Position numbers and translations under genes: made by a program
The notes under the pieces: generated by a model
Told to the model about the DNA's origin: nothing
The model's database searches: none
The model's input: only the letters and a program-made list of their open reading frames with translations
Shown: piece after piece, positions 8,700-15,369 of the stretch
Position numbering within the stretch: the stretch's first letter is position 1
How the letters are laid out: each line of letters opens with the position of its first letter
Source: Escherichia coli
GTDB lineage: Bacteria; Pseudomonadota; Gammaproteobacteria; Enterobacterales; Enterobacteriaceae
Direction: 5' to 3' (one strand)
DNA: 64,000 nt
Assembly (NCBI RefSeq): GCF_044647545.1
Contig: NZ_CP172818.1

Positions 8700-9464
8700 A
8701 TGCAAGCATTGCTGGAACACTTTATTACCCAATCCACCGTGTATTCATTGATGGCGGTGGTGTTGGTGGCCTTTCTGGAGTCGCTGGCGCTGGTCGGTTT
8801 GATTTTACCCGGTACGGTGCTAATGGCGGGACTGGGGGCGCTGATTGGCAGTGGCGAGTTAAGTTTCGGGCACGCCTGGCTGGCAGGGATCGTCGGTTGC
8901 CTGCTGGGCGACTGGATCTCTTTCTGGCTGGGCTGGCGTTTTAAAAAGCCATTGCATCGCTGGTCATTTCTGAAGAAAAACAAAGCATTACTCGATAAAA
9001 CTGAACATGCGTTGCATCAACACAGCATGTTCACCATTCTGGTCGGTCGCTTTGTTGGCCCGACGCGTCCGCTGGTGCCAATGGTGGCGGGAATGCTGGA
9101 TCTCCCGGTGGCAAAATTTATTACGCCGAATATTATCGGCTGCCTGCTGTGGCCACCGTTTTACTTCCTGCCGGGGATTCTGGCGGGTGCGGCGATCGAT
9201 ATTCCTGCCGGGATGCAGAGTGGTGAGTTTAAATGGTTGCTGCTGGCGACGGCGGTATTTTTGTGGGTTGGGGGCTGGCTGTGCTGGCGGTTATGGCGCA
9301 GCGGTAAAGCGACTGACCGTTTGAGTCATTATTTGTCGCGCGGTCGTTTGTTGTGGCTGACGCCGTTGATTTCTGCCATCGGCGTGGTGGCGCTGGTGGT
9401 GTTAATTCGCCACCCGTTGATGCCGGTGTATATCGATATTTTGCGTAAAGTGGTTGGGGTTTAG
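8700..9464 (+). CDS. yabI: DedA-family inner membrane protein
   Basis: 254-aa hydrophobic ORF at the position of yabI between araC and thiQ. Confidence 0.85.
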   Translation: MQALLEHFITQSTVYSLMAVVLVAFLESLALVGLILPGTVLMAGLGALIGSGELSFGHAWLAGIVGCLLGDWISFWLGWRFKKPLHRWSFLKKNKALLDKTEHALHQHSMFTILVGRFVGPTRPLVPMVAGMLDLPVAKFITPNIIGCLLWPPFYFLPGILAGAAIDIPAGMQSGEFKWLLLATAVFLWVGGWLCWRLWRSGKATDRLSHYLSRGRLLWLTPLISAIGVVALVVLIRHPLMPVYIDILRKVVGV

Positions 9465-9493
9465 GAGATAGTTTGCACCGGCGCTGGTTTGTT

Positions 9494-9533
9494 CCCCTCA
9501 CCCTAACCCTCTCCCCGGAGGGGCGAGGGGGCT
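9494..9533. repeat. GC-rich palindromic intergenic element (cccctcaccctaaccctctccccggaggggcgagggggc)
   Basis: Inverted repeat ccctctcccc/ggggcgaggg in the convergent yabI–thiQ gap; resembles a dispersed E. coli intergenic repeat or bidirectional terminator. Confidence 0.5.
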
Positions 9534-9545
9534 GTCCGTGCGCTT

Positions 9546-10244
9546 TTAACCTGTAATCCCCAACAGCGCCGAAGCACTCGCCTTACCGCTCAACAGCTCA
9601 TCGGTCTTACCCTGCCAGGCGATGCGCCCATCGGCGACCACCACCGAGCGCGTGGCAATCCGCGCAGCATCTTCCACACTGTGCGACACCATCAATAACG
9701 TCATTTTTTGCTGCTGGCAGCTCGTGCTCACCAGCGTCAACATCTCCTGACGTAACGCCGGATCGAGCGCAGAGAACGGTTCATCGAGCAATAAAATCGG
9801 CTGTTCGCGTACCAGACAACGCGCTAACGCCACGCGCTGTCGCTGACCGCCGGAAAGCTCGCCCGGTAACCGCGCTATTAAATTATCAATCCCCATCTGA
9901 CGGGCAATCGCGTGCATTTTCCCCTGCTGTGCCGCGTTCAGTTTCAACCCCGGATTTAGCCCCAGCCCGATGTTCTGCGCGACCGTCAGGTGACTGAACA
10001 GGTTGTTTTCCTGAAACAGCATCGACACCGGACGGCGTGACGGCGGCGTCGTGGTGTGATCAACGCCATCGATAGTCAGCGAACCGCTGGCTGGCGTCAG
10101 AAAACCGGCGATCAAATTCAGCAGGGTACTTTTACCCGCGCCGCTTGGCCCGAGGATCGCCACCTGCTCGCCGCGTTCTACCGTTAAGCTAAAACGCATC
10201 GGCAAATGGTGATAAAGCCAGGTGATATCAGTCAGTTTTAACAT
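9546..10244 (-). CDS. thiQ: thiamine ABC transporter ATP-binding protein
   Basis: Track ORF 9546..10265; start set at [13 protein letters not shown] (232 aa); Walker [10 protein letters not shown]. Confidence 0.9.
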
Positions 10245-12925: not shown

Positions 12926-13119
12926 GGCGTTAGTGTAGTGATTTTGTTATCAACCAGCAATCATAGAGAAGGCGTATTAAAAAAGCCAATATTCGTTCAG
13001 CTATCAAGGACGTATTTGCATAGCTGGGAAGCTTTGAACCGAAAGAATCCCTTAGCACAGTCAAAATCGGTAATGCAACCTTATTGCGTGAATGACGATT
13101 TTTGACATATTCTTTCAGG

Positions 13120-13712
<593 letters not shown>

Positions 13713-13713
13713 G

Positions 13714-15369
13714 CGATGGATCCGGCGGCGCAAACCACGCTGATTTAAAATCGAACCAGCCGAGGGTGTTCATACGTAGACCGCGCATACTGCGTTGCCC
13801 CTGAATGATCAGCCAGTGGTGGATAAGCGGCACCATTGCTTTGCTGGCGACCAGTTGCTGGCACCAGTTCGCCAGGTTCATTTCGCCATTGCGCCAGCGG
13901 GCGGCGTCGGCTTGCCAGTCGATGGGAAGACAGTGTTGGAGCAGCGGCACCTCGCACAAGTGCGCGAACAGCGAAAAATCCAGCGGCAGCGTAAAGTTGG
14001 CGCTGTTAAGCCAGATATCGCTCTCGATCTCTCCTTCATGCCACTGATCGTAGCTGATCTCTTTGATTTCCAGCGTGACCTGGTGACTTGCCAGAATCTG
14101 CTGCATGATCCCGGCAATCACTCGATGCTCAATATGATCCTGATAAAAGGTCAGGGTGAGGCTTTCCAGCCCGGCGGGTTTTTCGCAATGTGTCGGACGA
14201 GCATGGTGCCAACGGGGGAGCAGTCCATAAGCCGGGAACCACAGTTGCTGGTACTGTTCCTCAGCGAAATAGACCAGATTAGTTGGAGAAAGCACATAGC
14301 TTACCCAGTCCCTGACTTGCTGATTCGCCCCGCGATGGGTGCGGCTGTCGAACAGTAAATAGTAGCAACCTTCCTCCAGGCGGCTTTCAATCTCTTTTTC
14401 CTCGCCCTGTGGCCCTTTTAGCATCAGCCCTCCGGCTGGCTCGTCGGCAATTTCCGGCAGAACCCAGACGTTAACTTCGTCGATTAATGCCCGGTAACCG
14501 AAGAAGTCATCGAATGCCTGAATTTTCAGTTGATTGGTGCTGTTGCGGATCACCGCATACGGACCGGTGCCGATGGGATGGCTGGCAAAGTTACTGAGGG
14601 TTTCCCATTCGCGCGGCAGGATCATCGCCGGAACTTGCCCCAGCAGTAACGGCAACCAGCGATCCGGCTGCGTGAGGTGGATATCCAGCGTCCAGGGCGT
14701 CGGCGATACAATTTCAGCAATATGCGAATAGAGCGGCAGCGTATTGATCCGTTTTAAAGAGGCGATCACATCGTCCATTTCCAGTTCACGACCATGATGA
14801 AAATGGACTCCTGGACGCAAAAAGAAACGCCAGTGAAGCGGTGATATTTGCTGCCAGTGGTGGGCGATGTCTGCTTCCAGTTCCCCATTTTCCTCATTTA
14901 TGCGCGTTAGCGAACTGAAGATTTGCCGGGCGATATGGGTTTCGGAACGACGCAATGCACTGCCGGGCAGCAGATTACGCAACGGACGATAGTAGAGAAC
15001 GCGCAGGATGTGCCGCCCCTGGCGGAAGCTGCGTCCCAGATGAGAAACCAACATTTGCCGCACAGCCGCTTTGTCGCCAACCAGTTGCACCAGTTGATCG
15101 ATACGATCCTGCTCCAGCAGGTCTTCCGCCCGCTGTTGCTGAAGCGCCAGCCCGGTATAGAGGAATGTCAGACGCGAGCGTTTACCGCGCCCGACTTCCG
15201 CTTCCCACGTCAGCCAGCCGCGATCCTGCATGGTGTTGAGCAGGGTGCGCATATGACGACGCGAGCAACTCAGTAACGCTGCCAGTTCGTTGAGCGTGGT
15301 CTCCTGCGATTTACCCTCGCAGCATTGCCACAGGCGGATGAACTGTTGTTGCAGACGAGCAGATGGCAT
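13714..15369 (-). CDS. sgrR: sugar-phosphate stress transcriptional regulator SgrR; 3' end uncertain because the frame runs into the low-complexity tract
   Basis: Track ORF 13660..15390 (576 aa); start set at [15 protein letters not shown]; remembered length 551 aa would place the native stop near 13714, but here the frame continues ...[22 protein letters not shown] into homopolymer sequence. Confidence 0.8.

Follow-up and report, generated by a model that had tools for sequence, protein, structure and literature searches.

Among the short repeats described from Escherichia coli, the closest to the element treated here is a family known under three names: BoxC for a palindromic repeat seen in the 1990s, PIT (potential intrastrand triplex) after Hoyne and Maher, and TMECO after Holder et al. 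(PMC4666352), who cite prior BoxC and PIT work by Bergler, by Bachellier and by Hoyne and Maher. In an earlier survey of E. coli, BoxC was 50-56 bp long and present in 22-32 copies. Holder et al. (2015, PMC4666352) assign subtypes by the second loop, which is TTA in type A and CCG in type B, with "mm" standing for one mismatched triplet; type A mm prevails in K-12, where 13 of the 23 copies belong to it. The same study describes five inverted BoxC pairs for K-12 and reports the motif from more than 260 genomes. As summarised there, an earlier functional study found neither promoter nor terminator activity for PIT elements; the constructs it tested (Hoyne and Maher 2002) may have contained the core only, without the arms and the T run. 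Dar and Sorek (2018, PMC6061677) described Rho-dependent transcripts that end just past stable stem-loops lacking a U-tract, which protect them against PNPase and RNase II.

A BoxC copy in the yabI-thiQ spacer

The window, by which we mean the whole stretch of 64,000 nt of E. coli DNA analysed (contig NZ_CP172818.1), carries yabI on the plus strand with its stop codon at 9462-9464 and thiQ on the minus strand with its stop codon at 9546-9548, leaving a spacer of 81 nt according to the ORF list. Both gene calls are backed by the RefSeq annotation of E. coli FDAARGOS_497, a record 100% identical to the window at this locus, and the convergent arrangement described in an earlier note on this DNA agrees with the ORFs and with that annotation. 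The note placed a GC-rich palindrome at 9494-9533; the start is correct, but the 39-nt string quoted there ends one base earlier, at 9532. The copy lies wholly inside the stop-to-stop interval, in keeping with TMECO elements being always intergenic.

Read on the minus strand from 9529 to 9494, the element is identical at 36 of 36 positions to K-12 TMECO no. 23 between fimH and gntP, which is given as "type A mm" in Table 1 of Holder et al. (PMC4666352). The TMECO consensus, CCCTCNCCC N3-6 GGGNGAGGG N3 GGGNGAGGG, searched as the pattern CCCTCNCCCN3-6GGGNGAGGGN3GGGNGAGGG, has a single match in the 64 kb of the window (minus strand, 9529-9495) and none in 100 shuffles. The element is not a simple palindrome but consists of three 10-nt blocks, CCCCTCACCC-TAA-CCCTCTCCCC-GGA-GGGGCGAGGG on the plus strand, which read CCCTCGCCCC-TCC-GGGGAGAGGG-TTA-GGGTGAGGGG on the minus strand, the G-rich one (Table 1). 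By inspection the blocks give eight C-G·G triplets, one T-A·T triplet and one triplet with a Watson-Crick mismatch (G/A), which with the TTA loop corresponds to type A mm; the three blocks obey the purine-motif (class II) triplet rules and so fall within the TMECO definition. The G block pairs with C block 2 with one mismatch, from which the subtype takes its suffix. We have hardly any doubt that the element is one copy of BoxC (PIT, TMECO), of type A with one mismatch. As such it is already known, an ordinary copy of a long-described repeat, and no curated RNA family lies over it: an Rfam scan of 9300-9700 at E ≤ 10 returned noise only, for example from miRNA and frameshift-element models, with hits well under the gathering scores.

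Table 1. Features of the yabI-thiQ element in the window, and reported RNA 3' ends at BoxC copies of K-12 (K-12 coordinates)
Feature	Position	Strand	Remark
Polymorphic cassette	9473..9545		73 nt here versus 105 nt with two REPs in K-12
Left arm of BoxC unit, GTTTGCACCGGCGCTGGTTTGTT	9471..9493	+	Kept in other copies
C block 1, CCCCTCACCC	9494..9503	+	Complement GGGTGAGGGG is the third (Hoogsteen) strand in the published triplex model
Loop TAA (TTA on G-rich strand)	9504..9506	+	Sets TMECO type A
C block 2, CCCTCTCCCC	9507..9516	+	Complement GGGGAGAGGG is the central purine strand in the triplex model
Hairpin loop GGA (TCC on G-rich strand)	9517..9519	+	
G block, GGGGCGAGGG	9520..9529	+	Complement CCCTCGCCCC is the pyrimidine strand in the triplex model
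Core fitting the published TMECO consensus	9495..9529	-	Pattern match
Right arm, GGCTGTCCGTGCGC	9530..9543	+	From comparison with other BoxC copies
Short T run after right arm	9544..9547	+	Overlaps thiQ stop codon 9546-9548
K-12 copy 2, hrpB, 3' end	164636	+	4-5 nt past perfect inner hairpin
K-12 copy 17, lldD, 3' end	3781065	+	4-5 nt past perfect inner hairpin
K-12 copy 20, ppiC, 3' end	3959467	-	4-5 nt past perfect inner hairpin
K-12 copy 7 (type A mm), fepB leader, 3' end	624567	-	11 nt past 36-nt core, ...GUGC / GCUUUG

To delimit the unit, 14 K-12 BoxC sites were compared with all copies turned to one orientation, which gave a conserved left arm GCACCGGYGCTGGTYTGTTC, the core and a conserved right arm GRCYGTYCGNGCNC. 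The left arm in the window has its best match in another BoxC left arm (21 of 24 positions identical, score 18; shuffles had a mean of 7.6 and a maximum of 13, and none of 2000 reached the score), and CTGTCCGTGCGC from the right arm is present exactly in the adk-hemH copy (12/12, a score likewise reached by 0 of 2000 shuffles). Since these conserved arms match those of other copies, the full unit extends beyond the core to approximately 9471-9543, about 70 bp and thus almost all of the 81-nt spacer. A run of at least three T follows the right arm in roughly 10 of 16 BoxC copies, the flanks being judged by eye.

The inverted repeat that had been called strong does exist, but it is modest, and the adjective claims too much. 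The repeat finder reports 10-nt arms with 90% complementarity, 9494-9503 pairing with 9521-9530 at 9 of 10 positions, and the single G block 9520-9529 can pair with either 9507-9516 or 9494-9503, with one mismatch each. Whichever strand is read, 9-10 bp can pair into a stem that includes one mismatch. The minimum free energies of the 81-nt spacer RNA are -33.7 and -33.8 kcal/mol for the two senses, and neither core, unit nor spacer folds ever beat dinucleotide shuffles (RNA z = -0.9 and -1.7, DNA z = 0.0 to -0.6) with programs that handle Watson-Crick and GU pairs only. We therefore dropped an unusually stable palindrome as an argument. What exceeds chance, and far beyond it, is the exact sequence and not the stability of the hairpin; CCCTCTCCCC, for instance, occurs once in the window against an expectation of 0.01.

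The suggestion that the palindrome resembles a dispersed E. coli intergenic repeat family was borne out by the consensus match and by copies elsewhere. A megablast search with the spacer against 5426 complete E. coli genomes returned near-identical matches of 55-80 nt at unrelated loci, among them K-12 fimH-gntP, bacA-cca and a site downstream of soxR with alignments over approximately 70 nt. The unit also aligns with 11 further K-12 sites. A sensitive BLAST search found the BoxC unit in 5418 of the 5426 genomes, the median per genome being 16 places (range 1-27); practically all E. coli genomes have near-identical copies at further loci. NZ_CP033850.1, a record identical to the window at yabI-thiQ, has the unit at 9 places. 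The copies at bacA-cca in S40 (L002, 1435-1500) and downstream of soxR in KE40 (L003, 1440-1500) adjoin a second, degenerate BoxC-like segment in inverted orientation, e.g. TTTTCTCCCTCGCTCTGTAGGGAGAGGGCCGGGGTGGGGGTGA. These arrangements are A+B inverted pairs resembling the five known from K-12, and the published table has no BoxC at either locus in K-12.

A second BoxC in the window at 13495/13530 was considered and rejected, the G-rich near-matches there belonging to a low-complexity stretch. This stretch, 12963-13716 (754 nt), consists largely of long homopolymer runs, e.g. "ggggaaaaaaaaaaaaaacgggggggggtgggccgggggggagggaaaaaag", with 54% A in 13111-13710 and 23 runs of at least 7 bases in 13000-13999. 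The otherwise identical NZ_CP033850.1 has 1010 nt of normal sequence at this place, including the T3SS effector gene espY2, between the thiB TPP riboswitch and sgrR. The stretch gives the impression of sequence corrupted or degraded by an artefact of assembly or sequencing, or by masking, and not of biology.

Spacer alleles and distribution of the family

The yabI-thiQ spacer is polymorphic in E. coli. Counting alleles at ≥80% coverage of each allele's spacer in the 5426 complete genomes, we found the BoxC allele in 233 (about 4%), an allele with two REP elements in 4442 and one with a single REP in 384; REP elements occupy the spacer in approximately 89% of the genomes. In K-12 the spacer is 113 nt long and contains two inverted REPs and no BoxC. 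The flanks GGAGATAGT and TAACC are common to the BoxC allele and the K-12 REP allele. At least four alleles of the spacer exist, one of them a 12-bp-deletion variant, and in strain THO-008 a single base is missing from block 1 of the BoxC copy, which also carries three substitutions. The names yabI and thiQ do not appear in the accessible part of the supplementary loci of Holder et al. (PMC4666352). We regard the alternation of REP and BoxC at this locus, with its allele frequencies, as mildly new. A BoxC remnant within the K-12 REP allele was considered and rejected, a 10-mer shared with the adk-hemH arm (CTTGTGCGGG) not being significant (p = 0.06 on the left, 0.82 on the right).

Of the 14 K-12 sites examined, 3 have REP-like words at a distance of approximately 55-70 nt from the core, namely fimH-gntP (L001, 1450), frlR-yhfS (L136, 91) and pstA-pstB (L139, 89). 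On this count REP and BoxC would often share a spacer, and at yabI-thiQ they alternate.

The variation of the spacer fits the published view of TMECO loci as unusually variable: in a comparison of 56 strains their variation exceeded that of control spacers (Holder et al. 2015, PMC4666352). One could accordingly suppose that the element acts at the DNA level, a transient triplex or hairpin of the G-rich strand stalling polymerases during replication or repair and making the spacer a hotspot of deletion and replacement, with any effect on RNA incidental. In vitro the G-rich strand indeed adopts an intrastrand purine-motif triplex of very high stability (CD and NMR; Tm 74 °C for type A mm) that stops polymerase in primer extension, and the number of alleles at yabI-thiQ, as well as the damage to the THO-008 copy itself, would suit such a hotspot. 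However, the triplex was detected neither in vivo (no DMS protection) nor in duplex DNA (Holder et al. 2015, PMC4666352), and REP spacers are polymorphic too: the loss of one REP and the 12-bp deletion both fall within REP alleles, and therefore the instability need not come from BoxC. Between transient triplexes and spacer variability we see an association, not causation, and action at the DNA level appears distinctly unlikely to us as the main explanation of the element.

Outside E. coli, a contig search with the consensus pattern found at least 120 stretches in diverse genomes; the hosts among the matches listed include alpha-, beta-, gamma- and delta-proteobacteria, Verrucomicrobiales, a cyanobacterium and single MAGs of other groups. 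Among the 147 copies in the matches listed, the three variable positions read almost only T/A/T (77) or G/A/T (60), and the variable pyrimidine position is T or G only in 146 of 147, across about 16 unrelated genomes. As the mismatch variant (G opposite A) makes up 60 of the 147 listed copies, it represents a conserved state and not decay. In the mismatch variant, block I can also pair with block III through a G-T/G-U wobble. The flanks are lineage-specific and the core is nearly invariant across distant phyla in the matches listed (L011-L130), and Pseudomonas copies carry the E. coli right arm GRCTGWCCGWG.

A mobile element as vector was looked for and none was identified: 3 phage records and 215 "plasmid" records matched, the latter mostly megaplasmids of rhizobia and Azospirillum or E. 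coli records whose length ranges from about 0.1 Mb to that of a chromosome. BoxC is essentially absent from phages. Two Campylobacter jejuni phage records, MG065686.1 and MG065691.1, each have two places approximately 90% identical to 52 nt of the BoxC unit; this is unexpected in an AT-rich phage, and contamination or chimeric assembly could account for it.

The near-invariance of the core across phyla suggests a sequence-specific constraint, which a generic hairpin role does not explain. It would be accommodated if BoxC were a second REP-like, interchangeable 3'-UTR cassette, in which selection keeps an exonuclease-blocking hairpin, be it BoxC or REP, at convergent junctions such as yabI-thiQ and the invariance of the core reflects recognition by a conserved protein. 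The putative protein would then be a mobilising enzyme or an RNA- or DNA-binding factor, and triplex chemistry would not be what is conserved. We hold this to be an unlikely account of the family.

Transcript 3' ends and the terminator question

The palindrome had also been taken as a probable bidirectional terminator for the two convergent genes, a reading that our results do not support. On the thiQ-sense strand the sequence past the hairpin is AACAAACCAGCGCCGGUGCAAACUAUCUCC, without a U-tract, and the minus-strand tail past the stem, AACAAACC, shows that a U-tract is not present on both strands. In the yabI sense there is UUUU only, 12 nt past the core and overlapping the thiQ stop codon. 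A terminator consensus scan gave no hit at the element. Judged by its sequence, the element would be no terminator for thiQ and marginal at best for yabI.

Since the K-12 reference has REPs at yabI-thiQ, its transcript maps cannot be transferred to this strain at the locus itself. We compared every K-12 BoxC coordinate with the tables of Term-seq ends and Rho termination given by Adams et al. 2021 (PMC7815308), whose 3'-end coordinate we verified to correspond to base 51 of each printed 61-mer. Four of the 23 K-12 copies have a Term-seq 3' end (Table 1), and one of these four is among the 13 copies of the type A mm subtype. The other 12 type A mm copies are without a curated 3' end in these tables, which is weak evidence either way, as several of them lie beside genes poorly expressed in the conditions used. 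The end at lldD has an intrinsic-terminator score of 1.32, where a score above 3.0 suggests an intrinsic terminator, and it is flagged as lying within a Rho-termination region. Rho-termination peaks are found 80-165 nt past copies 5 and 15, both of type A mm. Transcripts of adk cross a type A mm copy oriented as for thiQ here and end 61 nt further on, at the canonical terminator 497939, and ilvC transcripts pass copy 20, ending after the ppiC terminator hairpin. The cross-check suggests that BoxC copies with a perfect hairpin mark RNA 3' ends, a small and mildly new addition to what is known of the family.

In the divergent fepB-entC region (NC_000913.3, 624400-624900) the inverted BoxC pair of the fepB leader lies between two abundant Term-seq 3' ends: 624680(-) precedes copy 8 by 4 nt, and 624567(-) follows copy 7 by 11 nt and is 57 nt upstream of the fepB ORF. 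The fepB 5' UTR may undergo premature termination or processing linked to the pair.

The placement of the copies bears on the same question. Of 18 K-12 BoxC sites, 7 lie between convergent, 9 between tandem and 2 between divergent genes, one of the tandem sites being internal to the pst operon. As a circular chromosome has as many convergent as divergent junctions, the excess of 7 over 2 is only suggestive (one-sided binomial approximately 0.09). An orientation rule drawn from the first four copies, according to which the C-rich strand would be the sense strand of the upstream gene, was rejected, as the full K-12 list shows no consistent orientation.

A bidirectional intrinsic (Rho-independent) terminator common to yabI and thiQ could draw on this excess of convergent sites, on the presence of a GC-rich hairpin between convergent genes and on the few BoxC copies that coincide with Term-seq 3' ends. 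Against it stand the lack of a minus-strand U-tract past the hairpin and of a plus-strand A-tract before it, the empty scan, the low intrinsic score at the BoxC-associated lldD end, the absence of reported activity for PIT elements as summarised in PMC4666352, and the position of one copy inside the pstA-pstB operon while others are read through by adk and ilvC transcripts. We consider such a terminator very improbable.

A leaky intrinsic terminator working one way, for yabI only, with the whole unit in the C-rich orientation and the thiQ side unaffected, has somewhat more in its favour. In the yabI-sense fold an outer 8-bp stem, GGCGCUGG/CCG(U)GCGCU, closes at 9544 and is followed by UUU; the short T run past the right arm recurs in the C-rich orientation in about 10 of 16 copies; of the four K-12 3' ends, three likewise have this orientation; and the type A mm end at 624567, which falls between ...GUGC and GCUUUG, is equivalent to about position 9541 of the window. 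Here, however, the T run has only 4 nt, two of which belong to the thiQ stop codon, a codon that the REP allele has as well. The hrpB and lldD 3' ends lie 4-5 nt past the inner hairpin and not at a U-tract, Rho-termination peaks lie beyond two copies in the C-rich orientation, and ilvC reads through a copy in that orientation. One-way termination of this kind therefore seems rather unlikely.

The best explanation in our opinion, and a fairly probable one, is that the element is a BoxC copy without a dedicated terminator function for either yabI or thiQ, which would act as a weak exonuclease barrier at most. A 3' end shortly past a U-tract-less hairpin, with Rho acting downstream, is the pattern of the protective stem-loops of Dar and Sorek, from which the reading as an exonuclease barrier is taken. 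In this mechanism the transcribed element would form a GC-rich hairpin in the 3' UTRs of both yabI and thiQ, RNA polymerase would mostly pass it and terminate beyond, at Rho-dependent or other sites, and the hairpin would stop 3'-to-5' exonucleases, so that some transcripts would end a few nt past it. The element would thereby mark 3' ends as REP elements do, as is seen at four K-12 BoxC copies. The proposed behaviour of the yabI-thiQ copy at the RNA level is extrapolated from K-12 copies at other loci, and we favour it only slightly. Against it speak the predicted hairpin energies, no better than those of shuffles, and the near-invariance of the core. Because the subtype is mismatched, any effect here is probably weak; it would be stronger, and is likelier, in the yabI direction, in which the outer 8-bp stem and the UUUU lie. 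A lesser role of the hairpin in setting or protecting RNA 3' ends, chiefly in this direction, is possible.

Comparison with known repeats and stem-loops

For annotation it follows that the appropriate label for the spacer is BoxC/TMECO repeat and not terminator. As BoxC, two-REP and one-REP alleles occur naturally at yabI-thiQ in contexts that are otherwise alike, the locus is a convenient system in which to test the effect of such repeats on convergent transcription and mRNA decay.

From the published BoxC/PIT/TMECO family (PMC4666352) the copy differs in no feature of its sequence: the 36-nt core is identical, the TTA loop, the single G/A mismatch and the arms are the same, and it shares the intergenic and dispersed occurrence as well as presence/absence variation between strains. 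The difference is one of locus only, K-12 being without BoxC at yabI-thiQ.

REP/BIME elements resemble BoxC as short, GC-rich extragenic hairpin repeats that lie mostly at gene 3' ends, vary between strains and can serve, within a transcript, to mark or protect the 3' end of the RNA. Their sequence is unrelated, however, and BoxC is made of three blocks with mirror and inverted symmetry, not of a simple stem-loop; the REP consensus stem-loop (GCCKGATGCGRCG...CGYCTTATCMGGCCTAC) was not found in the spacer of the window and is present twice in the K-12 allele. REP/BIME are also far more numerous, with 301-485 PU-BIME copies versus 22-32 BoxC copies in E. coli in the earlier survey. We know of no dedicated transposase for BoxC.

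With intrinsic terminators the copy has in common a GC-rich stem-loop just past two stop codons, but it differs from them in lacking a U-tract on the thiQ side, that on the yabI side being only marginal, in the low intrinsic score at a BoxC-associated end and in the read-through at other BoxC copies. The protective 3' stem-loops of Dar and Sorek (PMC6061677) correspond more closely, as stable hairpins without a U-tract and with 3' ends a few nt downstream, as at BoxC copies 2, 17 and 20; that class is defined by function and not by sequence, and the yabI-thiQ copy is a candidate member only.
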